A DNA stretch of 64,000 bases from Candidatus Poseidoniaceae archaeon. GTDB lineage: Archaea > Thermoplasmatota > Poseidoniia > Poseidoniales > Poseidoniaceae. The position numbers and the translations under genes were made by a program. Under the pieces are notes generated by a model. It saw only the letters and a list, made by a program, of their open reading frames with translations, did no database searches and was not told the origin of the DNA. The stretch covers positions 492,413-556,412 of the forward strand of contig JBJLBB010000001.1 of the NCBI GenBank assembly GCA_045568435.1, written 5' to 3'. Below, piece after piece: positions 1,239-26,913 of this stretch (positions are counted from its first letter, which is position 1; each line of letters begins with the position of its first letter).

Positions 1239-1304
1239 CGTTTAATACTTAGGTTACACTATCGTAACTCTCAAGGAGTAACTATTTCCGCAGAAATTTA
1301 GTAT

Positions 1305-4300
1305 TCACTTTTTGTTATCGTGTAATTCTCTGGCTTGCTTAGCCCACTGGTCTCGCTTAACACGGCCTGGGAAGAACTCGATTGCTTTGTTGACTTCTTC
1401 TTCGATCTTAGACGTCATATTACCAACTTGTTCAAAGTTGTAAATTCCCAAAGCATTCAATTTTTCAGCAATAAAAGGCCCTATTCCTTTGATTTCTTGC
1501 AAATCGTCTTGCTCATCAATAGTGGCAACTCCAAGTGTGGAAAAGTCAATCGTCTTGGCTCGAGCTCTAACACGTTCTAATTCTTCTAACTTCTTGGCTC
1601 TCAACTTCTCTGTTTCTGCTTCTGTTTTTGCTTTTGCTTCTGCTTCTGCTTTTGCTTTTGCTTTTGCTTCTGCTTTTGCTTCTGTCATTGATTTGGCTTT
1701 TGCCTCTGCTTCAGCATTGGTTTTCTTACTTTCAGATTCGAGATTCTCCTGTTGCTTAACATATCCAGGGTCCGGCTTTACCTTAACATCCCAGATCAAG
1801 TAAACTGAATTTCTACCAATCTTGATAGCACCTTGGAATTCACCACCGCCGAGAGTTGGCTCTAAACTATCATCAAAGATTAGTTGGAACTTAATCACTC
1901 CTTCCTCGTCTGCTTCAAACATTCTTACTTCTTCATTTCCGTATGTCAGGTCTTCTGTCGTAAACTTGCGCTCGCCTTGTTGCACTGAGTAATCAACTGA
2001 TTGTATTTTCAAACCAGGAGTGATGTTGGTAATGGTAATCAATTCCTCGCTGTAGATTGTATCACCAGGGTTGACGTCATTGGCTGGTTTGAGGACGAAA
2101 GGATTGTCCTTTGTTCCTTCACCTTCAGCAAACTTAGGCCTTGAAGTGGTATTTTCTGGTTCTGCATCAAGAATTACTTCTTTATCGCTCGGGAAAAACA
2201 GTACAAATATCAATAATAATAGAAGAATGATAATCGGGAAACATATGTAACCCCACTTAAATTGGCTATCACCTTCATCTTCATCTTCTAAATCTATAAC
2301 TTCTTCAAGCACACTAATCGTGATGTTAAACGATTGGCCATGAGCAGAATTGTTTGCCCATATAGTGAACTGTGTAGCATCCATTGCTTCAGTTGGTGTA
2401 CCTGTTATACTTCCATCAAGGTGTGCGTCTCTAGCTGGACTCCATCCAAAGATTAGACCTGCAGGCAGTTCGCTACTAATCTCCCAAGTTGCAACTTCAC
2501 CTAGGCCAGAAACTGTCGGTAATTGAATACTAATTTCATTGCCTAAGGTAAGTGTCAATGTGTCTGAAGGGTATGTCATGGTAAATGGTAAGTCAAGGAT
2601 TGTATCAAGTGCGTCACAGATTCCATCGCCATCTTCATCGCCTGGAACACTGTTTTGAACGGAACTGTCAGTTCCACAATTTACTTCCATTTCGTCTGAC
2701 CAGTTGTCATTGTCATCATCAAGGTCCTCAACAAGAGGTGGCGTACTAGTGGATTCTCCGTTCAAAGTGTCTGGCATTCCGTCACCATCGCTGTCAATGG
2801 AACCTGCAGAGTCGAATGGGAATGCATCTGGTCCAACTGAACAACCACCATTGGCAGGCACTTCAGGCCCATCACAAACGCCATCACCATCGCTATCAGC
2901 GTTTGATGAGTCGGTTCCAGTATTGTTTTGGTCAACGTAAGTTGATGAGTTGGTTTCCACATCATTGAGTAGTCCATCACCATCAATATCTTCATCAAGT
3001 TCATCACAAATGGAATCACCATCAAGGTCTGTTATCAATGAATTAGCGTCAAGTGGGTCGGTTGCACAATTGACTTCTTCAGCATCGCTAAAGCCGTCTG
3101 AGTCATCATCCAAGTCTTCAACTAGGCCACCTGATGGATTGTAATCAAGTGGTAGTTGATTTGGCATACCATCCGAGTCTGAATCATCAAGAACGCCTAT
3201 TTGGATTACCATCACATCATTGAACAAACTGTTGTTAGCATAGATGGTGAAGTTTGTCAACAACATATCATCTGTTGGTGTTCCCCAAATGGTTCCATTG
3301 CTTGCTCCAATAAACATGCCATCAGGCAGGTCAGGACTAATTTCATAGACAGAGTCAGAGAGAGTTGATGTTGGTCCTATACTCAACATTTCTTCATTTA
3401 TCAGCAGGTAAATCGGACCAATCGAAAGGTCATAGTCTAAATCTTCAACAGTTACATTCACCTTAACGCTCATTGAACCTACATCATTAGTTGCAGTAAT
3501 TTCATACTCTGTGCGCACCTTGATTTCTGTGGCCGTACCGCTGAGTATTCCAGTACTTGTGTCAAAGAACAAACCAGCAGATGGTTCTGGGGTAATCGAC
3601 CATTGGGCAATTGCTCCACCTGTTGACTCAGGTACCATATTCAAGACACTCGAGTTGTTTAGCAGAACTTCATCCAAAGGCACGTATGCAATCATTGGCA
3701 CTTGGTCAAGAACGGTGATTTCAATTTGTGTCGTATCCGTTCCACCAGTATTGGTGGCAGATACGGTGTAGATTTCAGATGCCTTGACTTCGTCTGGTGT
3801 ACCAGATATCTCTCCAGTTAACACATCGAACATCAAACCAGAACTGAGTTCTGGCGTAATCGACCAAGTCACTACTGGTCCACCAAGGTTTGTCGGATTA
3901 AGTGGTAAATCACTGCTTACCGTATCATTTGTCATCTGAACACTTACCAGACTGTAAGAGATTTCCGGAACAATGTCAAGAATTGTGATGTTGATGTCAT
4001 GGGATGAATTACCACCAGTGTTGTTGGCCCAAATCTTGTAGAGTTGTATTGGTTGAATCGATGTTGGTGTCCCCCAAATCGTACCGTTGCTGGTTCCAAA
4101 AGATAATCCATTATCCAGTTCTGGATAGATGCTCCATATATCAACATCAGCAACAGTACCATTGGTTATAATTGGAGTCAATGCGGTCATTGGCTGACCA
4201 ATGGTAATGACTGAACTATCTGGATCATAATCGAGTTCAACTCCCGGCGCATTTACTGTGAAATTCAATGTGTGGTTTATTGCACCACCAGTGTTGTTAG

Positions 4301-7300
4301 CCCATACAGTTAGCATAGTTTGAGATGTGACATCAATAGGTGTGCCTGTGAACACACCATTAGTGAAGAAGAGTCCATTTGGCAGGACGCCTTCATACTC
4401 CCACGTCTCGACCATTCCACCAGTGACAGTTGGATGCAATGGTGTGATTGTCGTTCCAGTAACAAATATTTCATTCTCTCGACTGTAATCTAAGCCCACT
4501 CGTGGCTCATTGATGGTAATGTTGAAATTTTGGCTCACATTTCCACCCGTATTGTTAGCCCATACGGTGTATTGTGTTCGAGTCATGTTGATTATCGGAG
4601 TACCTGAGATTTCACCGGTTGCCGAGTCAAAGCTAAGACCGGTCCCGGTAAGTTCAGGTTCAATTTCCCAAGTTTCTACAATGCCGTTGGAGACTGGACT
4701 GATTGGTGTGGCCATCGGTTCAGCGCGTGTCAGATTGTAATTGTCTGCTGCGTAACTGAAGACGACTGGAACATCAGAGATTGTTATATTCAAGTAAACC
4801 GAAAGTTGGCCACCAGAATTATTACCCCAAATCAGATACTGAGTCTTACTTTGAACGTCAATTGGTGTACCCCAAATTGTTCCATTTCCAGGACCGAAAT
4901 TCAAACCGTTTGGTTCAGTTCCCACGAATTCCCACGATGTGATAGTACCACCAGTACTGATTGGTGAGAATGATGTCGCCGAGTTGTTGGTTAATTCAAC
5001 TTCTAGTGATGGATAGGTAAACGCTGGTGCGATGTCATCAACGGTCATCTCGATAGTAGTTGAAATGTCACCAGCAGAGTTGTTCCCCCAAACTGTGAAG
5101 GTAACTGTAGCAGTCACTGCAGTTGGTGTGCCGGTGATCTCACCAGTTGTATTATCAAATTCGATGCCGGCTGGCAAATCATCATATGAATCAATCGACC
5201 ATGATGTCGGTGCTCCGTCGGTATATGTTGGAGCCGCTGCGTTAACAATACTATTCTTAGTGAACGTATACGGTGAACCTGGATACGAAATTGAAGATGG
5301 TGCTTCATCTCGAACTGATATCGTAATTGTTGTCGAAATATCGTCGGCAGAATTGTTTGCCCATACGGTGAATGTAATGGCAGAATGTATTCCTGTTGGC
5401 GTACCAGTAATGACACCGTTTCCTGAGTTAAAGGAAAGTCCTGGTATCGAAGAAGAGAGAACAGGATAAATTTCCCATGTGCTTACTACTCCACCAACGT
5501 TGGTTGGTGTTTCTCCACTGACTGGGTCATTCTTAGTAAACGTGAACGGTGAACCAGCATACGAAATGTCGGCTGCTTCATCTTGAACAGTAATCGAAAT
5601 CGTAGTCGAAATATCGTCGGCAGAATTGTTTGCCCATACTGTAAAGGTGACTGCGGAAGTTACCGCAGTTGGTGTTCCGTAGATGGTTCCGTTGGACGGC
5701 CCAAACAAGAGGCCGCTTGGCAAGGTGGATGCTGCTGGATGAATAGCCCATGTGCTGACCGCTCCACCAGCGTTGGTTGGAGTTTCTCCAACGACTTCGG
5801 TGTTCTTGGTAAACGTAAACGGTGAATTCGCATACGAAATATCAGCCGCTTCATCTTGAACGTTGATTGTAATTGTTGTCGAATTGCTGCCCGCAGAATT
5901 GTTCGCCCAAACTGTGAATGTGGAAGACCAAGTCGCATACGGGATACCATAGATCTCTCCAGTCATATCGTTGAATTGGATTCCTGTTGGTAATGCTCCA
6001 TCTCTCACAAATAACGGTGTCCCTGTCGGTGCTCCACCGGTGTTGGTGAGGGTCACTCCGCTGATGGCGGAGTTTTTGGTGAACATGTATGATGATTGTA
6101 AGTACGAAATATCAGGCGCTTCATCTTGAACAGTAATCGAAATCGTGGTTGAAATATCATCAGCAGAATTGTTTGCCCATACGGTGAATATAATGGCAGA
6201 ATGTATTCCTGTTGGTGTACCAGTAATGACACCGTTTGCTGGATTAAAAGAAAGTCCTGGTATCGAAGAAGAGAGAACAGGATAAATTTCCCATGTGCTT
6301 ACTGCTCCACCAACGTTGGTTGGTGTTTCTCCACTGACTGGGTCATTCTTAGTAAACGTGAACGGTGAACCAGCATACGAAATGTCGGCTGCTTCATCTT
6401 GAACGGTAATCGAAATCGTAGTCGAAATATCATCAGCAGAATTATTCGCCCAAACTGTAAACATGACTGCGGAGGTTACCGCAGTTGGCGTACCAGTAAT
6501 GACACCGTTTGCTGGATTAAAAGAAAGTCCTGGTATCGATATCGAAATATCAGGGGTGATTTCCCAACCATCCGGAACGCCACCTGAGTTAGTTGGAGTT
6601 TCTCCACTGACTGGGTCATTCTTAGTAAACGTGAACGGTGAATTCGCATACGAAATATCGGCTGCTTCGTCTTGAACAGTGATCGAAATCGTAGTCGAAA
6701 CATCGTCGGCAGAATTGTTCGCCCAAACTGTGAATGTTGCGGTGGAAGTCACCGCTGTTGGTGTCCCGTAGATGGTTCCGTTGGATGGACCAAACAAGAG
6801 ACCGCTTGGCAAGGTGGATGCTGCTGGGTGAATCTCCCAGGTGCTAACCGCTCCACCAGCGTTGGTTGGCGTTTCTCCAACGACTTCGGTGTTCTTGGTG
6901 AACGTGAATGGTGAGCCGGCATACGAAATGTCAGGTGCTTCATCTTGTACCGTGATCGAAACCGTGGTTGAACTACTACCTGCTGAGTTAGTCGCTGTAA
7001 TCGTAACAGAAGCCGTTGCATAGACAGCTGTTGGGGTTCCAATTAAATACCCAGAGCCAGGAGGAAGAAAAATACCTGCTGGAAGCGTACCACTGGTGAC
7101 CGAATATGATGTGCTTGAGCCACCAAAATTGCTGGGAGCGTTAATTGTATGAGTTCCCTTGGTCCACAAGAACGGTGAACCTGGATAAGAAATATCAGGT
7201 GCTTCATCTTGAACGGTGATTTGGATTGTAGTGAAACCAGAGCCAGCTGGGTTGGTTGCTTGAATTACTATCGAGTGTACAGTACTCACCGCCGTAGGTG

Positions 7301-11862: not shown

Positions 11863-12069
11863 TCTTTTTAGTTGATTTTGACTGTGAAATTGTGGGGATA
11901 GCGATAATATCTACCATCACAACAAGTGGTGGAATTATCGCCATGATTGTTTGGTACAATTTGGGGAGGAAATAAAATCTAAAACTTACGAGCCAGGATT
12001 TGTCAAAAAGGCCTTTACCATTTTAGGAGTTTACTTTTCTTGTTAGCCACATTAATCACATTTAGAGGG

Positions 12070-12813: not shown

Positions 12814-12920
12814 TATCTTGGACTAAACAAACACCAGACTTACGGTTAGTGTTGCGGTTTGCCGGACAAATCTAACAGACATCATCTATTGGTGATGCCT
12901 TGAGCCACTACAAATTCAGA

Positions 12921-15900: not shown

Positions 15901-18900
15901 GAGTCAGGACCAGCGTAGCATACGCCGTCAACTGCATCAGGACCGTCACAGAATCCATCACCATCGGTGTCTGGATTGAGTGAATCAGTACCATTGGTTG
16001 CTTCATCAACATCCGGCATACCATCAGCGTCATCATCCAAATCTTCGATTAAATCAAATGGTGGCAAGCCAGTATCTGGATAATCATCCGGCAACTGGTC
16101 AGGCATACCATCTCCGTCGGTGTCTTCCAAAATCTCAAGCCAGAAAGTAGATTCTACACTTCTTGGCTCAGAAGTATTAGCCCAGAGAGTGAATGTGGTA
16201 TTGTCCATGGTCTCAAGTGGTGTTCCACTAATTATTCCGGTGTTGACATCTAAAGTCAAACCTGCAGGTAAGTCAGGAGATACTGCCCAAATAGCGCCAG
16301 GAACGGCGTTAGCAGGAGGTAGTGGAATCATCTCAGTATTATTGACAAGTACAGTTGGGCCAAGTGGACCGGTTCCAACTGGGTTGGAGTCAGGACCAGC
16401 GATACAAATTGGTAAGACCGAATTTGGACCATCACAAATACCATCATCATCGGTATCTGGGTCAAGTGGGTCTGTTCCCATATCACCAGAACCATTGAAT
16501 ATTCCAGTTCCAGTTTCAGCGACATCAGATGCCCCATCGCCATCATCATCCAAGTCTTCAACCAAGTCAAATGGTGCTTCACCAATTGTTGGATAATCAT
16601 CTGGTAATTCGTTTGGCAGACCGTCTCCGTCAGTATCTTCCAACACTTGCATGTTGAATGACCAACTCGAAGTGAAACCATCTGCAGTTACATTAGCAAA
16701 TAGCGTGTATGTGATATTATCTGTGACTTCTGTTGGTGTTCCAGAGATTACTCCAGTAACTGGATCTATTACGATTCCAGCAGGTAGTGCTGGATGAACT
16801 TCGTAAACCGCATCATCAACATCATACTTAGGCATCAAGTAGGTCATTGGTGTATTGTTGAGTAAGTATGCTGTACCATCAATTGCCGTACCAAGTTCAG
16901 TATCTGGACCTGCTACACAGATTGGTAATACGTCAATTGGACCATCACAAATACCGTCGTTATCGGTATCTGGGTCAAGTGGGTCGGTACCAGTATCTGT
17001 GTCGCCATTGTAGATTCCAGTATTGGTTTCGTTAACGTCCTCAATACCGTCACCATCATCGTCCAAGTCCTCAACAAGAGGAGGCACGCTGTTGGATGGT
17101 GGATTCAGAGTATCTGGGTCACCATCACCGTCAGTATCAGTATCAGCCGATGGGTCAAGTGGGAAAGCATCTGGACCAGCAACACAGTCTGGCTCAAAGG
17201 CAACTGGACCATCACACATACCGTCACCATCAGTGTCCGGATTAGTTGGGTCGGTACCATCTTCTGCTTCATCAACATCAGAGTTACCGTCATTATCATC
17301 ATCCATATCCTCAATCAAGCCAGGTGAGTCAGGATTGGTTGGGTCGTAATCATCTGGCAGCTCATTTGGCATACCATCGCCGTCACTGTCCTCAAGAATC
17401 TCAATTGTGAAATCCCAAGACAGCGAAGTTCCGTCAGTGTGGTTAGACCAGACAGTGAATGTTGTGTTAGTCAAGGTTTCAGTTGGCATACCGGTAATAT
17501 CACCAGTGTTTGGATCGATTGACAAACTCGCCGGTAGGTCAGGTGAAATCTCGAAAGTTCCACCAGGCACTACCAAGTAAGGTGCAAGGTCGTTGATGGC
17601 AGTATTGTTGACTCCAACCAAGGTTGGTGGTGGTGTGTTACCATTTGGTGATGGGTCAGGACCGGCAATACAAATTGGTGGTACTGCATTTGGACCATCA
17701 CAAATTCCATCATCATCAGTGTCAGGGTCAAGTGGGTCAGTTCCAGTATCTTGTCCATTGATGTAGATGCCAGTATCAGTCTCAACGGTGTCAAGTAAGC
17801 CATCTCCGTCATCATCATCATCAGCAATCAAGCCGGAAGTAGGTGGATTGGCTGGGTTGTAGGCTGGTGGCAAGTCATTTGCCAGGCCATCGCCATCAGT
17901 ATCGAGTAGACTTTCAAGACTGAAAGTAAAGGTTTCAGTTGCGCCACTACTATGGGTTGCAGTAACGGTAAATGTATCACTCATTGGACTGTCAACCGTA
18001 CCGGTAATCTCACCAGTTGCACTATCTTGCAATAGAGTGTTTGGCAAAGTTGGTGAAATGCTCCATGTGGTTGTGCCATCCCAGAATGCAGGATGGAAGC
18101 CGATTGCATCAATCGGTTGGTCTTCCACTACAGTGTGTGGATAAGCATTGTCCACGCTGAAGTACAATTCGTGCGTGGTCGAATAACCGCTTTGGTTGGC
18201 GTAAATAGTGTAGGTTTGATTGGTCGCATAGACCGAAGGTGTGCCGCTAATCGTACCGCCTGAGATACTCATACCTGCAGGTAGTGGTGGTTCGGTCTCC
18301 CATGATACTGGTGGAGTGTAATTTGAGTAAGTAATCACTGAAGGTTGATATCCAGCAACTCTTGGGTATGGGCAATTTGGACTTCCTTGCCCAGTTTCCG
18401 ACCACCGAGTTCCAATATCATAATACAGAACATCATCAATTACAAATGAAAAGCGCTTACCTGGACTTACACCATAATTAATGATATAACTAGAGCATGA
18501 TGAAGTGGCAGTAGGATGTGTAGGCATATCAGTATAATGATTTGATACAAAATATAGTGACTCGTTTGATATATCATAAGCCCAAAGATGACCATTATTT
18601 GCAGTATAGTAACCCGGACTCCCTCCTTGTTGGAATGAGTTATCGTGTGCATGTCCTGAAAAATAAATAGTATCACCGACAACCAAACTCATTTCACTCC
18701 CCGGGTCGAACCCGGTAAACGGATTACCTGGTAAGTCCGTTATCATCCATGCTGTTTCGTTTGTGGTGTTGTAAGCCCAAAGTTCCTCAGCGTTGCTATC
18801 GTCATCAAAACCAAAATAAATTACATCATTAACTATGAGGCGCATGTTATTAGTGGGAAAGCCACAACCACTATTGTAAAGACACGGGAAATTCGGCACT

Positions 18901-21782
18901 TGCCATGCTGATTCATTTTCAGTATTAATTGCCCAAATTTGTTGGGACATGTGATTTTGACCTGTACCCATTCCTATGTAATTGGTTCCAATTGTATAGA
19001 TAGTTGAACCAATAACTCCAATGTATTGCATTCGATTATAATTCTGATAAGAAAGAGTGTCTGACTGGTCTACATCGGTAACTACCCAATGAGTATAATT
19101 TGATGTATCATAAGCAAAGATTTTTCGATCAGCAAGGTTTGTTCCTGTTGTTGTTATAGCATCGAAGTAAATTGTATCACCTATAACTACACTGAAATCA
19201 TCACCTGGTCTAGAAGATGAAGAAGAACCAGAAGCTGCAATACCTGGATTAATATCAGCGGCTAACCAAGTTGTTTGGTTGGTTGCAGTATATGCCCAGA
19301 GTGCTTCGCTATGAGGATAAGGCCATGATGTATCTTCACGGGCACCAAAATAGAGCGTGTCGCCGACAACTTGCGTCATGTATTGTCCTGGGTATGCACC
19401 ATTTCCATTATCAAAGATATCAGTTACATTCCATGCTGTTCCATTTTGTGGATTAAAGCCCCATATTTCAACATTATTTGCAGTGTCGTTTTTAGCATCA
19501 AAATACAACACTCCATCCATAACTTCTGTAAAATATGCTCCTATCATTGATGCAAATGCAGTCGGATTGATATCTTTAACAAACCAAGTTGTGTTTGTCA
19601 ATATGTCGTGTGCCCATAATTCTCTTCCATGAACCCCATCGTCTGCATCGAATATAATCGTATTATCAATCAAAACTGACATTCTTTCACCTGGTACACT
19701 GTCACCATTGGAATTAATATCTGCTACAAGCCATGACATGCCTGTATCAATGCTATATGCATAGAGTTCATGACCTGCCGAACCACTTGCTACTATTCCA
19801 TCCATGTATATTGTATTACCATGATGTATTGCCATATGTTCTCCGCAATCACAGAATATGTCTTGATTATCCCACCAGATTGAACCATTTCCTGTTACAT
19901 TTACTGGTGCTGTTTGATGTCCATCTTGCGAGGTGTAGGATAGAGAGATTGGGGTCATTGCTTCACCAAGTTGCAGTTCAGCACCATCAACTGTTGAGGT
20001 GATTTCACCAAAAGTAAATGTTGACAACCAAATATCTGCCTCATAGGTAATTCCGTTAATGACGGCGGAGATGGTGTAGGTCGTGTTTACTGAGTCTACT
20101 GTTGGTGTACCGCTGATTGTACATGTTCCAGAATCGATGTTGAGTCCTGTAGGTAGGCTTGGTGAAGCAACACAACTTGTTGCACTGGTGATTGGACTTG
20201 AATATTCGACTCCTGAACCTGAACCACTACCTGAACCACTATCCGGCCCTTGCTGATACAGTGAAACCAAAGTCATTTGTGAGTTTAATTCAAAGCCATG
20301 TAAAATCTCTACATCACCATTTGAATCAACAACTACTGCGGTTTCATAACCATATCCTGTCGTACCGGTTGGCCCTGGATTATTGTATTGTGCGGTTTGC
20401 CAAGACCCAGAAACATCGTTCACATAGAGCAAGTGCCTGGCGTCTTGGAATTGATGTGAAATGTGTATATTATCATCGGTATCAATAAATATCGAGGATA
20501 AAGCTCCGCATGAGTGTGTACCGCTTTGAAAGCCAACTGAGCATGGGAAGGTACTGGAGGAGGTTGATGTCCAAGTCCCTCCAGAATTATTCGAATAGAT
20601 AAGATCGCTGTTGCTTTGATGAACAGAATGGACCACATCTGTAGAATCGATATTCACTGACACGTATCTAGCACCGTAGGAACCAAAGACGGTTGAACCA
20701 ATCTGCGTTGAAACCCAACTTCCACCTTCATTTGTGGTATGGTTCAATCTGTTATTCTGGCCATCACGCATAGTGTAGAGGACATGCGCAGCATCATCCG
20801 AATCAAGAATCAGGTCAAACGATGTATCGGACAAATGATAGCTACTGTAGGTTTGTTGGAGAATTGTTGATGACCATGAGCCACCCGAATTATCCGCTAT
20901 CTCCAATTTTGCAGTTGAACGGCCGCAGTCATATACGTAAGCGATGTATGCATTATTGTTTGAATCAACATCAATTGAGGTTCCACAATGGTAGTTATAG
21001 CCCCAAAAACGAAGGAAATCTGATGCAACAGACGTTGCCCACGAGCCAGCAACATTGTTGGTGTACATGACTTCTTTATTGGTGAAATTAAGATAGGAAA
21101 TGTGGATCTTATCGTTGGAATCTATGACTATGGAAGGGTCATATTGGGATTCTCCTGTCGCTAAAACCTCACTTGACCAAGTTCCTGAAGCGTCATTGGT
21201 GTATATTAGGCTCAACGAATCTGGGTCGAAAAAGACTGCATGGATGACATCATTGGAATCAATATCTGCTTCTAAATCTTGTATTCTTGCGTTTGTTCCA
21301 CCCGCAAAGATCGTTTCAATGGTTCCATTTGCTGGTGGCAATGGAGCGTTAAACGTAATATCGGTCATTACTTCACCGGTCTCAAGGTCAACACCTTCGA
21401 CGCTCGACGTGAGAATAGGGTTTGAAGAGGATAACCAAACACTTGTCTGGAAGGTTGTTCCACTGATTACTGCAGTAATTGTGTAGGTTGTGTTACTGGT
21501 TACTACTGTTGGTGTGCCGCTAATTGTGCACGTGCTGCTGTCGATGTTCAAACCGCTAGGCAACGAAGGTGTTGCAACGCAGGAGGTTGCACCGGCGACA
21601 TTAGTGATCAATCCAGTGCTGGAATCCCAGGTGTTGCTGCCGGAAACCGCATACGGGTGAACCCTGGTCGGTGTTGGCCAACACCATCGCCCAACTGTCC
21701 GTAGCTCGTTCCGTCCCCAGCACTTCATCTCGTTGTTATCAAGAATCACGCAGGTGTGGCCCGACGCCAGCAGAAACCGCAA
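12921..21782 (-). CDS. Giant cell-surface protein gene 2, C-terminal 2953-aa portion. Contains the RCC1 tail, He_PIG Ig-like domains, Asp-box units, ELW-type propeller repeats, 4-5 blocks of TSP3-like Ca-binding Asp repeats, one TM helix, a conserved cytoplasmic beta-rich domain, a long E/K/A-rich helix (about 230 aa) and two tandem C-terminal HhH modules. It begins mid-RCC1-repeat; the true upstream continuation is ORFs 21903..22244 and 22184..25615 via several indels.
   Basis: Starts with ...SGHTCVILDNNEMKCWG (an interior RCC1 unit; track start is TTG). Multiple LPxGLxxDxxTGxISGTPT motifs. Repeated DTDGDGxxD / DPDTDDDGICDGP units. TM helix AWWCFPLCFLLLLLLLIPIFLL. KKAEKEAEEAEKKAK...-type region. 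Two copies of DDLQxIKGIGPFIxEKLxALGIxTxxQxxNMT...EAIEFFPGRVKRDQW. Confidence 0.85.
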   Translation of the reverse strand: MRFLLASGHTCVILDNNEMKCWGRNELRTVGRWCWPTPTRVHPYAVSGSNTWDSSTGLITNVAGATSCVATPSLPSGLNIDSSTCTISGTPTVVTSNTTYTITAVISGTTFQTSVWLSSSNPILTSSVEGVDLETGEVMTDITFNAPLPPANGTIETIFAGGTNARIQDLEADIDSNDVIHAVFFDPDSLSLIYTNDASGTWSSEVLATGESQYDPSIVIDSNDKIHISYLNFTNKEVMYTNNVAGSWATSVASDFLRFWGYNYHCGTSIDVDSNNNAYIAYVYDCGRSTAKLEIADNSGGSWSSTILQQTYSSYHLSDTSFDLILDSDDAAHVLYTMRDGQNNRLNHTTNEGGSWVSTQIGSTVFGSYGARYVSVNIDSTDVVHSVHQSNSDLIYSNNSGGTWTSTSSSTFPCSVGFQSGTHSCGALSSIFIDTDDNIHISHQFQDARHLLYVNDVSGSWQTAQYNNPGPTGTTGYGYETAVVVDSNGDVEILHGFELNSQMTLVSLYQQGPDSGSGSGSGSGVEYSSPITSATSCVASPSLPTGLNIDSGTCTISGTPTVDSVNTTYTISAVINGITYEADIWLSTFTFGEITSTVDGAELQLGEAMTPISLSYTSQDGHQTAPVNVTGNGSIWWDNQDIFCDCGEHMAIHHGNTIYMDGIVASGSAGHELYAYSIDTGMSWLVADINSNGDSVPGERMSVLIDNTIIFDADDGVHGRELWAHDILTNTTWFVKDINPTAFASMIGAYFTEVMDGVLYFDAKNDTANNVEIWGFNPQNGTAWNVTDIFDNGNGAYPGQYMTQVVGDTLYFGAREDTSWPYPHSEALWAYTATNQTTWLAADINPGIAASGSSSSSRPGDDFSVVIGDTIYFDAITTTGTNLADRKIFAYDTSNYTHWVVTDVDQSDTLSYQNYNRMQYIGVIGSTIYTIGTNYIGMGTGQNHMSQQIWAINTENESAWQVPNFPCLYNSGCGFPTNNMRLIVNDVIYFGFDDDSNAEELWAYNTTNETAWMITDLPGNPFTGFDPGSEMSLVVGDTIYFSGHAHDNSFQQGGSPGYYTANNGHLWAYDISNESLYFVSNHYTDMPTHPTATSSCSSYIINYGVSPGKRFSFVIDDVLYYDIGTRWSETGQGSPNCPYPRVAGYQPSVITYSNYTPPVSWETEPPLPAGMSISGGTISGTPSVYATNQTYTIYANQSGYSTTHELYFSVDNAYPHTVVEDQPIDAIGFHPAFWDGTTTWSISPTLPNTLLQDSATGEITGTVDSPMSDTFTVTATHSSGATETFTFSLESLLDTDGDGLANDLPPAYNPANPPTSGLIADDDDDGDGLLDTVETDTGIYINGQDTGTDPLDPDTDDDGICDGPNAVPPICIAGPDPSPNGNTPPPTLVGVNNTAINDLAPYLVVPGGTFEISPDLPASLSIDPNTGDITGMPTETLTNTTFTVWSNHTDGTSLSWDFTIEILEDSDGDGMPNELPDDYDPTNPDSPGLIEDMDDDNDGNSDVDEAEDGTDPTNPDTDGDGMCDGPVAFEPDCVAGPDAFPLDPSADTDTDGDGDPDTLNPPSNSVPPLVEDLDDDGDGIEDVNETNTGIYNGDTDTGTDPLDPDTDNDGICDGPIDVLPICVAGPDTELGTAIDGTAYLLNNTPMTYLMPKYDVDDAVYEVHPALPAGIVIDPVTGVISGTPTEVTDNITYTLFANVTADGFTSSWSFNMQVLEDTDGDGLPNELPDDYPTIGEAPFDLVEDLDDDGDGASDVAETGTGIFNGSGDMGTDPLDPDTDDDGICDGPNSVLPICIAGPDSNPVGTGPLGPTVLVNNTEMIPLPPANAVPGAIWAVSPDLPAGLTLDVNTGIISGTPLETMDNTTFTLWANTSEPRSVESTFWLEILEDTDGDGMPDQLPDDYPDTGLPPFDLIEDLDDDADGMPDVDEATNGTDSLNPDTDGDGFCDGPDAVDGVCYAGPDSHPLDPALPVNTDGDAFPDDDPDGDGGLIADDDDDNDGFLDTLENDCLSDPLNATDVPSDMDGDGICDALDDDKDGDGIDNIFETETGIYNSTSDTGTDPANPDTDGDGVCDGPATPDVAICVAGPDAFPNDPAASLDTDGDGMPDELNGNSTTGLIEDLDDDNDTIVDLTEEMCGTDPKVVNLLPDMDGDGICDALDDIIDLDFNMTYESQYVDLFVNKTMVDFLPNVTGIGEVASWEIDGEIPEGLTFGWSPARDAMLDGGIRGTPTNYSEEPVNVTVWANNSNYQHSFILSITVFNDTDNDSLPDSLPANYTGNITVDHDDDNDGFFDQDEIDCGSNPYDNSSSPENTDGDICDQLQGDGDNEDDEGMAWWCFPLCFLLLLLLLIPIFLLRDRVIALVDDAEPENTTSKPKFTDGVGTKDNPFILKPLKTVKPGSVVVSKELITITDITPGLKVKSQDYFDRENERRFLMQDDSGSEEGTRMIVADDDGVMKFRLLFDDSFKPTLAGGEFQGAVKVGRRSVYFMWDIKVKPDPDYVKEQKKLEAERKKAEKEAEKQSKKEAAEAEKQAAKEAKEAEKKAEKEAEETAAAEAEEKARLEEEEAEAAKKAEEEALAAVAIAEAEEKAQKKAEKDAKAAEAKAKKEAAADKKAKKEAEEAEKKAKEEADAKATKEAEAKAKKEADAAAAAEAEAKAKKEAEEAEKKAKADAEKAKKAAAKKKPATTKEAKKEEEIERVKSRAKTIDFKVLGTASSTKLKSEVKKGAKTLEVANAKEFADAGSAAITDDKGSTIITWTGKDGNTLTGVGGITRVFGKASVVMVKDDLQVIKGIGPFIEEKLNALGITTYRQIANMTAKLETQVNEAIEFFPGRVKRDQWVNQAKILLGEDVKLDEKALKQAEELERIAKKAETIDFATLGVATIDEKDDLQTIKGIGPFIAEKLYALGIYTFEQVGNMTSKIEEEVNKAIEFFPGRVKRDQWAKQARELHDNKK
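13740..14290 (-). repeat. Low-complexity GCT/TCT/CTT-rich tract encoding the about 230-aa E/K/A-rich linker of giant gene 2.
   Basis: Long run of gcttct/ggcttt/cttctt motifs; protein KKAEKEAEEAEKKAKEEADAKATKEAEAKAKKEAD...; antisense artefact ORFs 13366..14019 and 14077..14292 are A/S/F-rich. Confidence 0.8.
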
Positions 21783-21902
21783 CGGCCGTGCGGCCTGTGC
21801 CTAGGTCAATCGCTGTGGAAGGTGCGTTGGTGGCGGTGTTAGTTCCACCATCGCCCAACTCGTCCGTAGATGTCCCGTCCCCAACACTTCAATTCGCCGT
21901 TA

Positions 21903-22244
21903 TCAAGAATGGCGCAGGTGTGGTCCTCTCCAGCAGACACTGCAACGGCAGTGCGGCCGGCACCGAGGTCGACCGCTGTGGAAGAAGGTATGTGTCCAGG
22001 TGTGTCGTGTAATGCCTCCTACCCAATCGCCCCACTGTCCGTACCTGTCATATCCCCAGCACTTCAGGTCGCCGTTGTCAAGAATCGCGCAGGCGTGATA
22101 CGAACCTGCTGAAACCGCAAGCGCAGTTCGGCCTGAACCGAGGTCAATCGGTGTGGAGAGGAGGAGTTGATTCCGCTGGAATGTTAGTGCCGATGGAGGG
22201 GATATACAATGCCCAACTCTCCCGCGAAGTTCTGCCCCCAGCAC
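21903..22244 (-). CDS. Out-of-frame RCC1-repeat fragment of giant gene 2, probably part of one originally continuous reading frame.
   Basis: Contains STPIDLGSGRTALAVSAGSYHACAILDNGDLKCWGYDRYGQ, a canonical RCC1 unit. Its N- and C-terminal ends are read-through garbage in the wrong frame. Confidence 0.6.
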   Translation of the reverse strand: MLGAELRGRVGHCISPPSALTFQRNQLLLSTPIDLGSGRTALAVSAGSYHACAILDNGDLKCWGYDRYGQWGDWVGGITRHTWTHTFFHSGRPRCRPHCRCSVCWRGPHLRHS

Positions 22245-25200
22245 TTCAGGTCGCCATTGTCAAGAATCGCACAGACGTGCATAAACCCGCCATCTACTGC
22301 AACGGCCGTGCGGCCCGGGCCGAGGTCAATCGGTGTAGAGGGAGGAGTGTACTCGTCGTTGCTGGTACCAATACCCAACTGACCATAGTCGCCCCTTCCC
22401 CAGCACTTCAGGTCACCGTTATCGAGAATAGCGCAGGTGCGATAATAATCTGCAGAAATGGCAACGGCCGTTCGGCCCGTGCCAAAGTCTATTGAAACAG
22501 GTGAAAGTTGGTTTGCGGAGCTCATATCGTCACCCAACTGTCCGTATTGGTCGCTTCCCCAACACTTCATGTCACCGTTGTCAAGGATGGCGCAGTTGTG
22601 AGTTGACCCAGTTGAAATGGCAACGGCCGTTCGGCCCGTGCCGAGGTCAATCGCTGTGGATGAAGGAGTGTTTTGGGCAAAGAGAGAGGTTGCACCATTG
22701 CCCAACTGTCCTTGTTGATTAAATCCCCAGCACTTGGCATCGCCGTTGTCGAGAATAGCGCAAGTGTGGAGTTCTCCAACACCGACCTTGTTGTTCGCAT
22801 AAGCAGAGGCGGAGGAACTCGAAGAGCCGCTGCTTGAGCCGCTGCTCAGTACAGTTGAGGAATCCCAGGTGTTGCTACCAGTAACCAAAACAGGTGTGAT
22901 TTGGCCTACGGAGGAGGCGGAACCTTGGCCCAACTGCCCACGATCCTGTCTCCCCCAGCACTTCGCATCGCTGTTGTCAAGGATGGCGCAGGTGTAGTAA
23001 GTTCCAGCAGAAACCGCAACGGCCGTCCGGCCCGTGCCGAGGTCAATTGCTGTGGAGGAAGGTGCTGTTGTGTACGTGGAAGTTGTATGTTGTGTTCCAC
23101 CGTCGCCCAACTGTCCGTAGTTATCCCATCCCCAACACTTCAAGTCGCCGTTGTCAAGGATGGCGCAGGTATGGTGAAGTCCAGTAGAAACCGCAACGGC
23201 TGTGCGACCAGTACCGAGGTCAATCGCTGTGGACGAAGGGGCGTTGGTGTCCGTGTTGGTTCCACCGTCGCCCAACTGTCCCTTGTAGTCTCGCCCCCAA
23301 CACTTCAGGTCGCCGTTGTCAAGGATAGCACAGGTGTGGAAGTTTCCAGCAGACACCGCAATGGCCGTGCGGCCCAGGCCGAGATCAATCGGTGTGGATG
23401 AAGGGGCGTTGGTGGCAATGTTGCTTCCACCATTGCCCAACTGTCCATAGTTATCGGCCCCCCAACACTTCAGGTCGCCGTTGTCGAGAATTGCGCAGGT
23501 GTGGCTCGAACCAGCAGATACAGCAATGGCCGTTCGGCCCATGCCGAGATCTATCGGTGTGGATGAAGGTGCGAGGATGTCCGTGTTGGTTGCACCGTAG
23601 CCGTGGGCGGAATCTATTCCCCAACATTTCAAGTCGCCGTTGTCGAGGATGGCGCAGGTGTGGTAATCTCCAGCAGATGCCGCAACTGCCGTTCGGCCTG
23701 AGCCGAGATTAATCGGTGTGGATGAAGGAGCGTTGAGGTCGTTCGCAGTAGGATCAGCGCTGGACCATGCTGGCCCGCCATCGCCCAACTGTCCTTTCCA
23801 GTCATATCCCCAACACTTCATGTCGCCGTTGTCGAGAATGGCGCAGGTGTGTTGGAGACCTGTGACCACCTGCAAAGCCGTTCGGCCCGTGCCGAGATCA
23901 ATCGCAGTGGATGAAGGTGCGAGGATGTCCGTGTTGAATCCACCGTCGCCCAACTGTCCCTTGTGGTCATTCCCCCAACACTTCAGGTCGCCGTTGTCAG
24001 TAATAGCGCAGGTGTGACTGCTGTGTTTTGCATCAAGCTTGTTGTTCGCATAAGCAGAGGCGGAGGAACTCGAAGAGCCGCTGCCTGAGCCGCTGCCTGA
24101 GCCGCTTACTGCACTGGAGTCATATTGGAAGGTGATGTTGGTCATGGCCTGCCCAACTGTAAGGTCTGCACCTTCTGAACTGGCAATTAAGTCAGTAGCA
24201 GAACTGCCGCTATTAGAGCCGGTTGAATTGTCCCATGTAAAACCGCCATCAACAATTCCAGGAACCGATGAATCGCTTTGACCAGGTCCATTACCTAGGG
24301 CACCATTGTGATCATGTCCAAAGCATGTCAAGGAACTATCGTCAAGAATGGCGCAAGTGTGGTCGCTTCCAGCAGAGATGGCTAATGCTGTTCTGCCAAC
24401 TCCGAGGTCAACCCACGCAGGAGAATAAGCGGGTTGTGTTGTCGGGGCACCGGTACCAAGTCTGCCATAACCGTTAGCGCCCCAGCAATATAATGAGCCG
24501 TTGTCAACAATAGCACAGGTGTGAAAATCTCCAGCAGATACTGCAACTGGTGTGCTACCTGCTCCCAGATCAACCCAACTTGGTGTACCAATTGTTTGCA
24601 TAGAGCCTCCTGAACCATTACCCAACTGACCATACGAGTTATGTCCCCAACAGTAGAGTGAACCGTTGTCATAAATTGCGCACATGTGTTGGCTTCCCAG
24701 AGATATTTGCGCAGCAGTTCTACCGGCTCCAAGGTCTACCCAGAGCGGAGCATACTCATTGGCTTGGGGGCCTGATGAGTGAAAAGGGCCGCCGCGGCCA
24801 AGCTGACCATATGCGTCGCTGCCCCAGCAGTAAAGCGAACCATTATTGAGAATCGAACAAACGTTCATGCTACCAACACCGACTGCTACTGCGGCATTTC
24901 CGCCCAAGTCAACCCAGCCTGGAGACGTTTGAAGTCCCAGATGTTGATTTCCATAGCCCAGTTGTCCATGAGTATTACTGCCCCAGCAATAGAGTGAACT
25001 ATTATCAGCAATAGCACAAGTTGTACCGTAGGCAGCAGCAATTCTTGTCGCAGTCCTACCCACTCCTAAATCCACCCACACCGGAGTAGTTTGTGTTTGA
25101 GTTTGTTGTCCATTGCCTAGTTGACCATATGTATTCTCTCCCCAACACATCAGTGAGCCGTTGCTCAGAGTAGCACAAGTATGACGATATCCGTTTACGA

Positions 25201-25615
25201 CCTCATTAACAGTTGTACCAGTGCCAAGGTCAACCCATACCGGAGTATGGGCATTTGTGGTGGTGCCATCACCAACTTGTCCGCGATTATTCAGCCCCCA
25301 GCACAATAGCGTGCCGTTGTCCAGAATCGCACATGTATGAAGTCCTGATGCGTCAAGTTGGTAACTATGCCTAATCTCAGTACTAGGTGAATTGCTTGAG
25401 CCACCTGTCTCCATAGCCGATGAATAATCATCAAATGAATCATTACCGGTTCTTGGACTATTTATCAGGTCTAAGTACCCGACTTGAGTCATGATTATCA
25501 TAATAATAATCAAAAACGCTGATTTTACAGTTTTTCCATGGCTTGCGCTACGCTGCATGATAGATGTTTTTACAGCAAGTGGATATAAGTTAACCCGTTC
25601 ATGAAAGGAACTCAA
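22184..25615 (-). CDS. Giant cell-surface protein gene 2, N-terminal 1143-aa portion: signal/anchor peptide then about 20 RCC1 repeats with GSGSGSG linkers. By manual translation the track start is TTG (computed at 25616); the internal ATG at 25559 (MQRSASHGKTVKSAFLIIIMIIMTQVGYL) is a more likely start.
   Basis: Hydrophobic N-terminus. About 20 copies of xHTCAILDNGDLKCWGxxxxGQLGDGGTxxxxxPxxxxIDLGxGRTAVAVSAG. Terminates at a stop produced by a 16-nt insertion-like lesion. Confidence 0.8.
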   Translation of the reverse strand: MSSFHERVNLYPLAVKTSIMQRSASHGKTVKSAFLIIIMIIMTQVGYLDLINSPRTGNDSFDDYSSAMETGGSSNSPSTEIRHSYQLDASGLHTCAILDNGTLLCWGLNNRGQVGDGTTTNAHTPVWVDLGTGTTVNEVVNGYRHTCATLSNGSLMCWGENTYGQLGNGQQTQTQTTPVWVDLGVGRTATRIAAAYGTTCAIADNSSLYCWGSNTHGQLGYGNQHLGLQTSPGWVDLGGNAAVAVGVGSMNVCSILNNGSLYCWGSDAYGQLGRGGPFHSSGPQANEYAPLWVDLGAGRTAAQISLGSQHMCAIYDNGSLYCWGHNSYGQLGNGSGGSMQTIGTPSWVDLGAGSTPVAVSAGDFHTCAIVDNGSLYCWGANGYGRLGTGAPTTQPAYSPAWVDLGVGRTALAISAGSDHTCAILDDSSLTCFGHDHNGALGNGPGQSDSSVPGIVDGGFTWDNSTGSNSGSSATDLIASSEGADLTVGQAMTNITFQYDSSAVSGSGSGSGSGSSSSSASAYANNKLDAKHSSHTCAITDNGDLKCWGNDHKGQLGDGGFNTDILAPSSTAIDLGTGRTALQVVTGLQHTCAILDNGDMKCWGYDWKGQLGDGGPAWSSADPTANDLNAPSSTPINLGSGRTAVAASAGDYHTCAILDNGDLKCWGIDSAHGYGATNTDILAPSSTPIDLGMGRTAIAVSAGSSHTCAILDNGDLKCWGADNYGQLGNGGSNIATNAPSSTPIDLGLGRTAIAVSAGNFHTCAILDNGDLKCWGRDYKGQLGDGGTNTDTNAPSSTAIDLGTGRTAVAVSTGLHHTCAILDNGDLKCWGWDNYGQLGDGGTQHTTSTYTTAPSSTAIDLGTGRTAVAVSAGTYYTCAILDNSDAKCWGRQDRGQLGQGSASSVGQITPVLVTGSNTWDSSTVLSSGSSSGSSSSSASAYANNKVGVGELHTCAILDNGDAKCWGFNQQGQLGNGATSLFAQNTPSSTAIDLGTGRTAVAISTGSTHNCAILDNGDMKCWGSDQYGQLGDDMSSANQLSPVSIDFGTGRTAVAISADYYRTCAILDNGDLKCWGRGDYGQLGIGTSNDEYTPPSTPIDLGPGRTAVAVDGGFMHVCAILDNGDLKCWGQNFAGELGIVYPLHRH

Positions 25616-26913
25616 GCGGAATCATACATGTTAATAGCAGTTTCCAGACGTCTTGCTTCTTCTTCAAGTTCAGCCCTTTTCTTCTTATCCATGTTGACAT
25701 CTTTGAGTTGCTCTTGAATAGCATCAAGTTGCTTCTTCGCTTCTTCACGTTCTTCAAGGTGCTTTTGTTCTTCCTTCTCCATCTTCTTAGATGCTGCAGC
25801 CTGCTTTCTAGTTGATGCTTGAGTGTAAACACTTTCTGTTAACTCAACAGATGTTGGATATGGAATATTGATTCCTTCATCGCTAAACGTACTGTCGATC
25901 GTTCTTAAGAGCCAATCTCTTGCTAGCCACTCATCTGAGTAGTCATTGACCCAACCAAATAGGCGGAACACTTTAGCAAAGTCACCAAGTTCAGTCAACA
26001 AAACCTGCGGTTTTGGCTCATCAATAACGTATTCACAATCCCTGGCAATCTTGACCATCGTTAGCTTAACGTGTTCGGTGCTCTCACGGTAATCAACACC
26101 CACATCGATAACAATAGAGATACGTCGAGCCATTCCATCACCGCCACCACGAGCATGGTTAACTATCGTGGAGGAAACTAATGTGTTGTTTGGAATGACC
26201 ACCAGGCGCTCATCTCGGTCAAGAACCTTGGTTGAAAGAATACCTGTTCCGACAACTGAACCCCAAGTGCCATCAACTTCAATTCGATCACCGATTTCAA
26301 ACGGACGGTCAATTGCAAGTAAGAAAGAGTTGATGATGTTACCAAGAGTTTGTTGTACTGCAAGTCCGATAATTAAGGAGAATACCGCTAATGAAGCAAG
26401 TACTCCAAATAATTCAACTCCAATTTCCGTAAGGGCAAGGTAAAGACCTCCAAACCATACTGTGAATCTTAATGTAAAGGTAATCAGAGGATTACTACCA
26501 GATACTGTAACGCTTGACTTCTCTGTGAACCGGTCCATTATCATAGGAATAATATGTTTAATCGAAACACTGGCAATTGAAGTAGCCAGCAATATGTAAA
26601 TGGCTGAAAAAATAGGATCTAATGTGTCATTGAATGAATATCCTTCAAATACCCATAATAGAGTTAGTTGAGCAGCACCAACATAGAGGAAAAAGTATGC
26701 CCTTGTCGCTACTGGACGGTGTAATTTGTCATCCCACGCGGTGTCAGTAGACATCACAATACGGCCCCAAGGCCTTACAATACCAAACTTTACGACTTGA
26801 AAAGCAATGAAAGTAAGAATAATACTAATTCCGAATTTAAAGAATGAATTTAATTCATCTACCGCATCTAATTGTTCGTTGACCGTATTCATGAAATCAT
26901 CAATAGCACTCAT
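25612..26913 (-). CDS. mscS: Small-conductance mechanosensitive channel (MscS family) with a C-terminal charged coiled-coil extension.
   Basis: Three N-terminal TM helices and a conserved MscS core (...LAVQQTLGNIINSFLLAIDRPFEIGDRIEVDGTWGSVVGTGILSTKVLDRDERLVVIPNNTL...). ATG at 26913 verified. Confidence 0.85.
   Translation of the reverse strand: MSAIDDFMNTVNEQLDAVDELNSFFKFGISIILTFIAFQVVKFGIVRPWGRIVMSTDTAWDDKLHRPVATRAYFFLYVGAAQLTLLWVFEGYSFNDTLDPIFSAIYILLATSIASVSIKHIIPMIMDRFTEKSSVTVSGSNPLITFTLRFTVWFGGLYLALTEIGVELFGVLASLAVFSLIIGLAVQQTLGNIINSFLLAIDRPFEIGDRIEVDGTWGSVVGTGILSTKVLDRDERLVVIPNNTLVSSTIVNHARGGGDGMARRISIVIDVGVDYRESTEHVKLTMVKIARDCEYVIDEPKPQVLLTELGDFAKVFRLFGWVNDYSDEWLARDWLLRTIDSTFSDEGINIPYPTSVELTESVYTQASTRKQAAASKKMEKEEQKHLEEREEAKKQLDAIQEQLKDVNMDKKKRAELEEEARRLETAINMYDSA

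Follow-up and report, generated by a model that had tools for sequence, protein, structure and literature searches.

Tandem genes for two giant, predicted surface-anchored proteins with a conserved Ig-helix-HhH tail in a Marine Group II archaeon

RESULTS

Two giant genes with clustered frame breaks

We analyzed a 64-kb stretch of DNA (here called the window) from a Poseidoniaceae (Marine Group II a) archaeon, in which two giant genes, gene 1 (G1) and gene 2 (G2), lie in tandem on the minus strand at positions 1305-25616. This region is nearly all coding, yet the list of open reading frames (ORFs) does not contain two intact ORFs for it. The G1 and G2 regions make up 36% of the window. G1 ends with a stop codon at 1305, has its ORF top at 11862, and probably starts at the ATG at 11739; for G2, the corresponding positions are 12921, 25615, and 25558. 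These coordinates are essentially those of an initial annotation (1305-11862 and 12921-25616, about 36% of the window). As recorded, G1 is composed of 8869-11862 (997 amino acids [aa]) and 1305-8987 (2560 aa) in separate frames, and G2 of 22184-25615 (1143 aa) and 12921-21782 (2953 aa) with broken frames between them. Three-frame translation at the junctions revealed that a He_PIG domain (G1) and RCC1 repeats (G2) carry on while hopping frames; the RCC1 repeats between the two G2 ORFs run on across all three frames.

The break sites were placed by frameshift-aware protein-to-DNA alignment, with orthologues from related genomes as guides (locus L001 for G1 and L018 for G2). In G1, we detected four single-base insertions at ~8814, ~8830, ~8873, and ~8886, all within one He_PIG domain. 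In G2, eight single-base insertions were detected at ~21651-22201, within the third RCC1 propeller. Thus, 12 of 12 lesions are +1 insertions, and the majority lie outside homopolymer runs. Omitting these 12 bases yields stop-free proteins of 3476 aa (G1) and 4209 aa (G2). The sizes of about 3500 and 4200 aa proposed in the initial annotation hold for the repaired genes, but the frame breaks in both had been silently read through. The genes and their insertion clusters are located as follows.

1305..11739, minus strand: G1, 3476 aa after removal of 4 bases; the L001 orthologue (26-10948) is an intact 3640-aa ORF
8811..8889, minus strand: G1 insertion cluster (n = 4); alignment to the L001 orthologue restores 'VLSGTPTTLGNTTLTITPSNASGSG..VSLIVNVNASGG'
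12921..25558, minus strand: G2, 4209 aa after removal of 8 bases
21648..22204, minus strand: G2 insertion cluster (n = 8); alignment to the L018 orthologue restores an unbroken RCC1 array

The GC content is 0.57 in the G2 RCC1 arrays (22001-24000) versus ~0.42 in the window, and the G2 insertion cluster is located at the edge of this internally repetitive stretch.

The insertions are most likely consensus errors

The 12 frame-breaking insertions are most likely local consensus errors and not biology, because orthologues are intact in other Poseidoniaceae metagenome-assembled genomes (MAGs) and because the downstream part of G1 shows a ratio of nonsynonymous to synonymous substitution rates (dN/dS) of ~0.2. 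Large intact orthologous ORFs were found at six loci, namely L001 (3640 aa), L011 (complete, 2788 aa), and L007, L010, L013, and L018, each of the last four with more than 3200 aa open. For the last 1352 codons of G1, comparison to the closest relative, L002 (95% nucleotide [nt] identity), gave a dN/dS of 0.23, demonstrating purifying selection on the C-terminal codons of this gene. Furthermore, the insertions are packed into ~75 nt in G1 and ~550 nt in G2. Elsewhere in the 23 kb of both genes, there is no further lesion, and neither a nonsense mutation nor a deletion. Downstream of the breaks, 2560 (G1) and 2953 (G2) codons are still open, and the remainder of the window is filled with dense, apparently intact ORFs.

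Alternatively, both genes could be true pseudogenes, in which case the insertions would be real mutations and this lineage would have stopped making the giant proteins. The frames are genuinely broken in the recorded sequence, and giant surface genes are often lost or varied among strains, an example being the lone giant gene at L011. In addition, the G2 orthologue of the FRAM MAG (L017) is likewise frameshifted. A single additional base (~5974) within a He_PIG domain divides it into ORFs of 1982 and 1939 aa, at a site unlike those of the window, and this split counts against sequence errors as the explanation. However, decayed genes would hardly be expected to carry exclusively +1 lesions confined to two short clusters, to keep such long downstream ORFs open with a dN/dS of ~0.2, to lie among apparently intact genes, and to have intact orthologues in several MAGs. 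We consider the pseudogene explanation improbable. We also rejected programmed frameshifting and phase variation, because there is no slippery-site pattern and the insertions (4 in G1 and 8 in G2) are spread across 75 and 550 nt, for the most part not in homopolymers.

Domain composition of G1 and G2

Domains were assigned by comparing Pfam and NCBIfam scores to the model cutoffs. From the N terminus, repaired G1 is composed of a signal peptide, a BNR_4-like propeller, He_PIG, one RCC1 propeller, He_PIG, a second BNR_4-like propeller, 17 He_PIG domains, TSP3-like repeats, He_PIG, a transmembrane (TM) helix, and a tail containing an immunoglobulin (Ig)-like domain, a spacer, and a helix-hairpin-helix (HhH) domain.

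11674..11739, minus strand: G1 signal peptide (MKSILLAVLMVSMSLSVGLVEL), read from the sequence; kept in the NAT37 paralogue
10420..11484, minus strand: G1 propeller A with 'IDSNDxxH' blades, BNR_4 related; no significant Pfam match, homologues with PF15892
9049..10212, minus strand: G1 RCC1 propeller with seven blades; WD40_RLD, 281 bits; RCC1_2, 7 stretches
7686..8633, minus strand: G1 propeller B with 'DS..H' blades as in propeller A; blade motif count and colinear alignment with the G2 propeller
3189..7685, minus strand: G1 array of 17 He_PIG Ig-like domains; He_PIG, 347 bits, 16 stretches; own-profile count
2598..3188, minus strand: G1 TSP3-like Ca-binding Asp repeats with 6 DxDxDGxxD motifs; TSP3_bac, 28.6 bits versus a cutoff of 25; motif count
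2181..2249, minus strand: G1 TM helix with W-C-[FL]-P at its outer edge; conserved motif
1761..2168, minus strand: G1 cytoplasmic (predicted) juxtamembrane Ig-like domain with ASH/PapD-like fold
1560..1748, minus strand: G1 helical spacer, rich in E/K/A; composition and TolA-like match
1308..1553, minus strand: G1 C-terminal HhH/H3TH domain of COG3743 type; PDB 9wqv_a, E 7.9e-12, and 8yy9_O, E 5.1e-11; NCBIfam NuoE C-terminal extension, E 1.7e-20

G2 starts with a signal peptide followed by three RCC1 propellers, He_PIG, a BNR_4-like propeller, He_PIG, an ELW propeller, and two He_PIG domains. Five TSP3 blocks alternating with He_PIG then lead to the TM helix and the tail.

21636..25366, minus strand: G2 three seven-blade RCC1 propellers (aa 65-445, 505-900, and 920-1305); WD40_RLD, 554 bits; RCC1_2, 18 stretches; 20 CWG..GQLG motifs
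20226..21338, minus strand: G2 BNR_4-like propeller; blades of DSN type, Asp-boxes degenerate ('SGxW')
18351..19943, minus strand: G2 ELWxxDGT-repeat propeller; TIGR04534, 72.7 bits versus a cutoff of 65
14796..17912, minus strand: G2 five TSP3-like Asp-rich blocks with 22 DxDxDGxxD motifs, alternating with He_PIG; TSP3_bac, 15.5 bits
14721..14792, minus strand: G2 TM helix
14271..14708, minus strand: G2 cytoplasmic (predicted) ASH/PapD-like Ig domain, 60% identical to its G1 counterpart
13701..14270, minus strand: G2 helical spacer, rich in E/K/A, ~190 aa
12924..13688, minus strand: G2 two HhH/H3TH domains with a ~70-aa beta-barrel insert before the first; HHH_5, 36.0 versus 27; Cdd1, 35.5 versus 25.5

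The two layouts are colinear from the last RCC1 propeller onward, while the N-terminal order differs. The "identical modular layout" of the initial annotation (signal peptide, Asp-box/BNR-like propeller, RCC1 array, He_PIG, TSP3, TM helix, tail) is therefore overstated: the C-terminal halves are colinear, but the order listed fits G1 only, since G2 begins with the three RCC1 propellers and has its BNR_4-like propeller after them.

Both RCC1 and He_PIG, as anticipated, were strongly supported by the HMM searches in both genes. With the RCC1 models (PF00415, PF13540, and PF25390), G1 scored 281 bits against the WD40_RLD cutoff of 150, with 7 RCC1_2 stretches. G2 reached 554 bits with 18 stretches in the intact ORF, and the 20 CWG..GQLG motifs present after repair correspond to three sets of seven. 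For He_PIG (PF05345, cutoff of 24 bits), the C-terminal ORF of G1 gave 346.9 bits over 16 stretches and G2 146.6 bits over 7 stretches. Counting with our own profile revealed 21 He_PIG domains in G1, 17 of them consecutive, and 8 in G2, in line with the amplification of this domain first ascribed to G1. A tandem repeat of 273 nt in 6.3 copies (5253-6972; TRF) lies inside the G1 array.

Support for TSP3 was uneven. With TSP3_bac (PF18884, cutoff of 25), the isolated G1 segment scored 28.6 bits and the whole G1 ORF 22.8, and G2 scored 15.5 and 14.7. There are 6 DxDxDGxxD motifs in G1 and 22 in G2. Thus, the TSP3 assignment is upheld by the model for the G1 segment and by motifs only for G2, where the larger number of blocks that had been noted was found to be five. 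The extra ELW propeller expected in G2 was also recovered (TIGR04534, cutoff of 65; aa 1870-2400, 72.7 bits, 4 stretches), and this domain is absent from G1. The L017 orthologue of G2 contains canonical ELWKSDGT repeats.

The Asp-box/BNR label did not withstand the searches. None of the three 'IDSNDxxH' propellers matched a BNR model (PF02012, PF13088, or PF15892) in Pfam at E values of up to 10, and NCBIfam gave no BNR match for G1 propeller A or the G2 propeller, the two propellers scanned. Only degenerate 'SGxW' motifs are visible in place of SxDxGxTW Asp-boxes. However, G1 propeller A has 836 homologues, including bacterial proteins, and about one-fourth of the 120 homologues listed carry a precomputed PF15892 BNR_4 assignment. 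Since the relation runs through these homologues, the designation "BNR-like" is only transitive. Against PDB sequences, propeller A gave nothing useful, the sole match being lysostaphin (E 0.09).

Predicted topology and the tail module

By inspection, each protein has an N-terminal hydrophobic signal and one TM helix. The ectodomains contain 1.7-2.3% Lys plus Arg, 32 (G1) and 74 (G2) Cys residues, and 1.6-1.8 N-x-S/T sequons per 100 aa; the tails contain 15-20% Lys plus Arg and 0 Cys residues. Because of this contrast, the basic residues after the TM helix, and the presence of the HhH module on cytoplasm-facing bacterial proteins, a type-I orientation (N terminus out, C terminus in) is the best reading of the sequences. 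The motif W-C-[FL]-P at the extracellular edge of the TM helix is invariant in 8 of 8 aligned family members, and basic residues follow beyond the helix. An archaeosortase/exosortase-type signal (PGF-CTERM or PEP-CTERM) was considered, since W-C-[FL]-P precedes the TM helix. It was rejected because a long tail of 290-600 structured residues comes after the helix. Just inside the helix, a near-invariant E-P-E-N-T-T was also observed. No known sorting signal corresponds to these motifs.

After the TM helix, 291 residues follow in G1 and 599 in G2. These tails consist of an ASH/PapD-like Ig domain, an E/K/A-rich helical spacer (~60 aa in G1 and ~190 aa in G2), and one (G1) or two (G2) HhH domains. 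Thus, the single TM helix and the conserved tail described initially are both present, but the first tail domain had not been recognized as an Ig-like domain of the ASH/PapD fold. It matches no Pfam model, and its identity to ASH/PapD-like/MSP-type Ig domains is 9-15%. A profile of this domain collected only 385 members among 1.84 billion cluster representatives. The best-scoring matches are mostly tails of TM-anchored proteins, the longest of 2859 aa, whose ectodomains are likewise built from RCC1, He_PIG, and TSP3 modules.

A second tier of homologues of G1 aa 3186-3335 (1761-2168; E 1e-11 to 1e-30) is composed of 1200- to 1900-aa proteins. In two of them (P0330 and P0337), the domain is located near the N terminus without a TM helix, and in P0330 Asp-box repeats then follow; some others contain 2-5 copies. 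One second-tier protein (L022, 4904-9184) is encoded on a 14-kb contig whose genes all run in one direction and which has a weak Phage_cement_2 match. In BFVD, the top match (E 4.5e-9) came from Synechococcus phage S-CBWM1 and is named 'BNR repeat domain protein'. From these sequence matches, the domain seems to be common to marine phage fibre-like proteins and archaeal tails.

The spacer resembles that of TolA, as suggested by the TolA-like match. At the tail end, the initial annotation had placed DUF4332 (PF14229), which scored 21.4 bits against a cutoff of 23.2 for the G2 tail and was not reported for G1. A COG3743-type HhH describes this end better. Indeed, the G2 tail passed HHH_5 (PF14520; 36.0 versus 27) and Cdd1 (PF11731; 35.5 versus 25.5). 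The single G1 copy is under the Cdd1 cutoff (21.2), yet 75% identical to the last G2 copy. According to NCBIfam, the linker plus HhH module is the same as that fused to alphaproteobacterial NuoE, S2, L21, and PhaH. In G2, a beta-barrel insert of ~70 aa (aa ~3970-4040; 13400-13688) precedes the first HhH. It is also present in orthologues and was modeled by AlphaFold2 with a predicted local distance difference test score of ~90; a Foldseek search against PDB gave only weak matches (phage tailspike N-domains and the F1-ATPase N-barrel; E of at least 0.017).

In JGI, tail fragments (P0002, P0005, P0010, and others) are named 'flap endonuclease-1-like 5' DNA nuclease' (COG3743). For the tail of a membrane protein this label is misleading and is not evidence of nuclease activity. 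NCBI lists family members as 'putative Ig domain-containing protein' or 'hypothetical protein'. Many of the deposited "proteins" break off at a contig end or begin within the low-complexity KAEA region.

Paralogy and relatives

G1 and G2 are true paralogues according to their sequences, in agreement with the tandem pair originally proposed. They align in colinear blocks with 35-75% aa identity. Identity is lowest (35%) over RCC1-He_PIG-propeller-He_PIG, reaches 55% in the final TSP3/He_PIG block and 60% in the first domain of the tail, and peaks at 75% across the C-terminal 113 residues.

A tail query retrieved 400 proteins, most of them fragments from contig ends; every match with a taxon name belonged to Poseidoniaceae, Poseidonia, or unclassified Thermoplasmatota/Euryarchaeota MAGs. 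Scanning of one genome per species with a four-sequence tail alignment revealed 21 loci. The 377-kb contig CASIAI010000002.1 contains both genes in the order found in the window, with a 247-aa ORF between them, and its DNA there is 84-87% identical to the window. Between the giant genes, the window contains a gene for a transcription regulator.

12070..12813, minus strand: HTH_10 transcription regulator gene; PF04967, 53.4 bits

At L017, a 247-aa ORF (11857-12600) has the same length and position as this gene, with 87% nt identity there. The NAT37 contig also contains a tandem pair, without the HTH_10 regulator; the second gene of this pair appears to stay open over more than 6500 codons. In UBA9354 (L011), a single 2788-aa gene lies beside the same MscS gene. 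A He_PIG-rich member on contig NZXL01000050.1 is represented by L019 (~4400-12971) and L010 (1-10816), with 2862 and 3604 open codons. These two loci are separated by a 242-nt gap, and the protein would exceed 6500 aa if the frame is continuous across it.

Each of five MAGs has two tail-bearing genes, and the G1-type and G2-type tails form separate groups. Because of this grouping and the recurrence of tandem pairs in other MAGs, the sequences indicate that the duplication of G1 and G2 is old.

The initial annotation had raised the possibility that the pair is an assembly duplication of one locus. Repeat-rich genes do mis-assemble readily, and the insertion clusters suggest local consensus trouble. 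However, since the paralogues are only 35-75% identical in protein sequence with differing domain sets, and since the tandem order recurs on independent contigs (on the 377-kb contig together with the intervening HTH_10 gene, and also on the NAT37 contig), a duplicated or mis-joined single locus is effectively refuted.

In the comparison of G1 to L002, the synonymous substitution rate (dS) was 0.05 for the ectodomain (2262-5373) and 0.56 for the tail (1305-2261). The last 255 nt of G1 (1305-1560) and G2 (12921-13176) are 89% identical. The excess of tail dS over ectodomain dS, together with this identity, suggests recombination or gene conversion in the tails.

Proposed function of the giant proteins

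Marine Group II (MGII) archaea are among the most abundant archaea of the surface ocean and are uncultured, and how they attach to particles and phytoplankton is a standing question in their ecology. We propose that G1 and G2 encode giant, anciently duplicated type-I membrane proteins that function in Ca-dependent adhesion and/or as a cell coat, with a tail tethered inside the cell and with the recorded frame breaks being errors. Taken as a whole, we hold this proposal to be moderately probable. The signal peptide would send an acidic ectodomain of 3100-3550 residues, with Cys residues but very little Lys or Arg, to the cell surface. There, the He_PIG Ig domains and the Ca-binding TSP3-like repeats may form a stalk holding a string of putative ligand-binding beta-propellers, RCC1-like and BNR_4-like and, in G2, also of the ELWxxDGT type. 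Each protein would be anchored in the membrane by its single TM helix. The proteins could attach the cell to particles, algal surfaces, or polymers in a Ca-dependent manner and/or build a cell coat. On the inner side, the Cys-free, Lys/Glu-rich tail would hold the protein to a partner within the cell, for which nucleic acid is the default guess given the HhH domains. Nothing enzymatic was recognized in G1 or G2.

Adhesion or a coat is favored because a stalk carrying several propellers corresponds to the architecture of adhesins and variable coats, and because adhesion domains have already been noted in MGII. In two earlier reports, 'thrombospondin' and Ca-dependent adhesion domains of MGII genomes were tied to particle association (PMC6461757 and PMC4511931).

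Several observations weigh against the proposed topology and tail function. A conserved N-T-T sequon is located directly after the TM helix. Homologues of the tail Ig domain belong to probable phage fibre proteins and would be extracellular there, so that the Ig fold alone cannot fix the compartment. Finally, the function of the COG3743 HhH domain is obscure even in bacteria (PMC12079452).

A mainly structural role is also conceivable, in which the proteins form an S-layer-like glycocalyx coat of the wall-less Thermoplasmatota cell and the tail fixes this coat to the interior. The very large, membrane-anchored, acidic ectodomains with their 1.6-1.8 N-glycosylation sequons per 100 aa would suit such a coat, two copies per genome are kept in several MAGs, and adjoining genes also encode large Ig-like surface proteins. 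However, domain content varies strongly between genera, with sizes from 2788 to more than 6500 aa and propellers gained or lost. Such variation is usual for proteins that face ligands or vary antigenically and less so for one that builds a lattice, and a lattice-forming domain was not recognized. Overall, a mainly structural coat is unlikely, though we give it more weight than the remaining alternative.

Under that alternative, G1 and G2 would be inward-signaling receptors: a ligand or mechanical load would lead to cleavage at W-C-x-P/TM, freeing the HhH tail to reach DNA in a Notch-like manner, with the HTH_10 regulator as part of the circuit. In its favor are W-C-[FL]-P, which is invariant at the outer border of the TM helix, the HhH domains of DNA-binding type in the tail, and the HTH_10 gene between the pair, which is kept in the FRAM MAG. 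However, the NAT37 pair lacks this gene, a search of the neighboring genes revealed neither a protease nor a sortase, and both DNA binding by the HhH domains and the cleavage itself are hypothetical, making the receptor model highly improbable.

Within our proposal of tethered adhesins, a further, speculative idea is that the tail couples the surface proteins to the nucleoid or to another nucleic-acid structure, or carries an attachment signal to DNA after W-C-x-P/TM cleavage; we hold this to be rather improbable. The spacer would measure 9-28 nm if the E/K/A helix is fully helical. Either process, if real, would connect the attachment to particles with the chromosome, from the outside in, in a way not recognized before, and would give a function to the COG3743 domain fused to alphaproteobacterial NuoE, S2, L21, PhaH, and RC-LH1 protein-O.

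Relation to known proteins and significance

Giant modular surface proteins and MGII adhesion domains are already known. A preprint (bioRxiv 10.1101/2023.11.21.568195) describes giant proteins of Omnitrophota (membrane anchored, Dockerin/TSP3 type) and Oscillospiraceae (RCC1 type), which like G1 and G2 are long ORFs of Ig-like, TSP3, and RCC1 modules, are predicted to be extracellular, and come from assemblies fragmented by repeats. Compared with those described there, G1 and G2 are smaller (3.5-4.2 kaa, with relatives above 6.5 kaa), are archaeal, and combine several propeller types per chain. In the passages of the preprint that were searched, no counterpart of the structured, conserved cytoplasmic tail of 290-600 residues turned up for either bacterial group, and the Oscillospiraceae RCC1-type giants, unlike G1 and G2, are without TM anchors.

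The MGII 'thrombospondin' and 'adhesion-domain' proteins (Rinke et al. 2019, PMC6461757; Orsi et al. 2015, PMC4511931) belong to the same lineage and were subject to the same TSP3-based inference of Ca-dependent adhesion. In the passages of these papers that were searched, only domain presence is reported, with no mention of giant size, the tandem pair, the full architecture, or a cytoplasmic module.

For the tail, the closest counterparts are alphaproteobacterial NuoE, S2, L21, PhaH, and RC-LH1 protein-O (Dinoroseobacter shibae), which share an Ala/Lys/Glu-rich linker followed by the same HhH. RC-LH1 protein-O even has, as do G1 and G2, a TM segment, a long linker, and HhH (PMC12079452). However, these COG3743 hosts are unrelated small bacterial proteins, whereas in G1 and G2 the module follows an Ig domain on a giant ectodomain; furthermore, unlike in the bacterial extensions, the HhH of G2 is duplicated and accompanied by the beta-barrel insert. 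The tail Ig domain, at most 15% identical to ASH/PapD-like/MSP-type Ig domains such as those of CFAP65, Hydin, CEP192, and OCRL, differs from them in that its sequence family is confined to Poseidoniales tails and the second tier in probable marine phage fibres.

In line with the initial annotation, which could match the combination of ectodomain and tail to no described family, none was found in Pfam, NCBIfam, or the literature searched. Neither the Ig-helix-HhH cytoplasmic module, nor its fusion to giant archaeal ectodomains, nor the conserved G1/G2 pair was found described in these sources, and for this MGII architecture the literature gave only general mentions of thrombospondin and adhesion domains.

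The G1/G2 family is probably a major cell-surface determinant, because it appears to be confined to Poseidoniales and is under purifying selection where examined. The structured cytoplasmic module would imply that adhesin-like giants also act inside the membrane. Comparative studies probably undercount the family, since its members are fragmented, frame-broken, or mislabeled 'FEN-1-like nuclease' in public data.

Other genes in the window

No tRNA genes were found in the 64-kb window. A second HTH_10 (bacterio-opsin-activator-type) gene is located at 27062-27724 on the plus strand, so that G2 is flanked by this gene and the one at 12070-12813 (minus strand). In addition, the window contains the following genes for large predicted envelope proteins, all on the minus strand.

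45917-50929, minus strand: 1670-aa Ig-like (HYDIN/CARDB-type) protein with C-terminal TM helices
61060-63993, minus strand: more than 977 aa, one TM helix, acidic tail; no Pfam match
1-1240, minus strand: beginning of a secreted protein whose L001 orthologue has 1110 aa and weak TSP3 similarity

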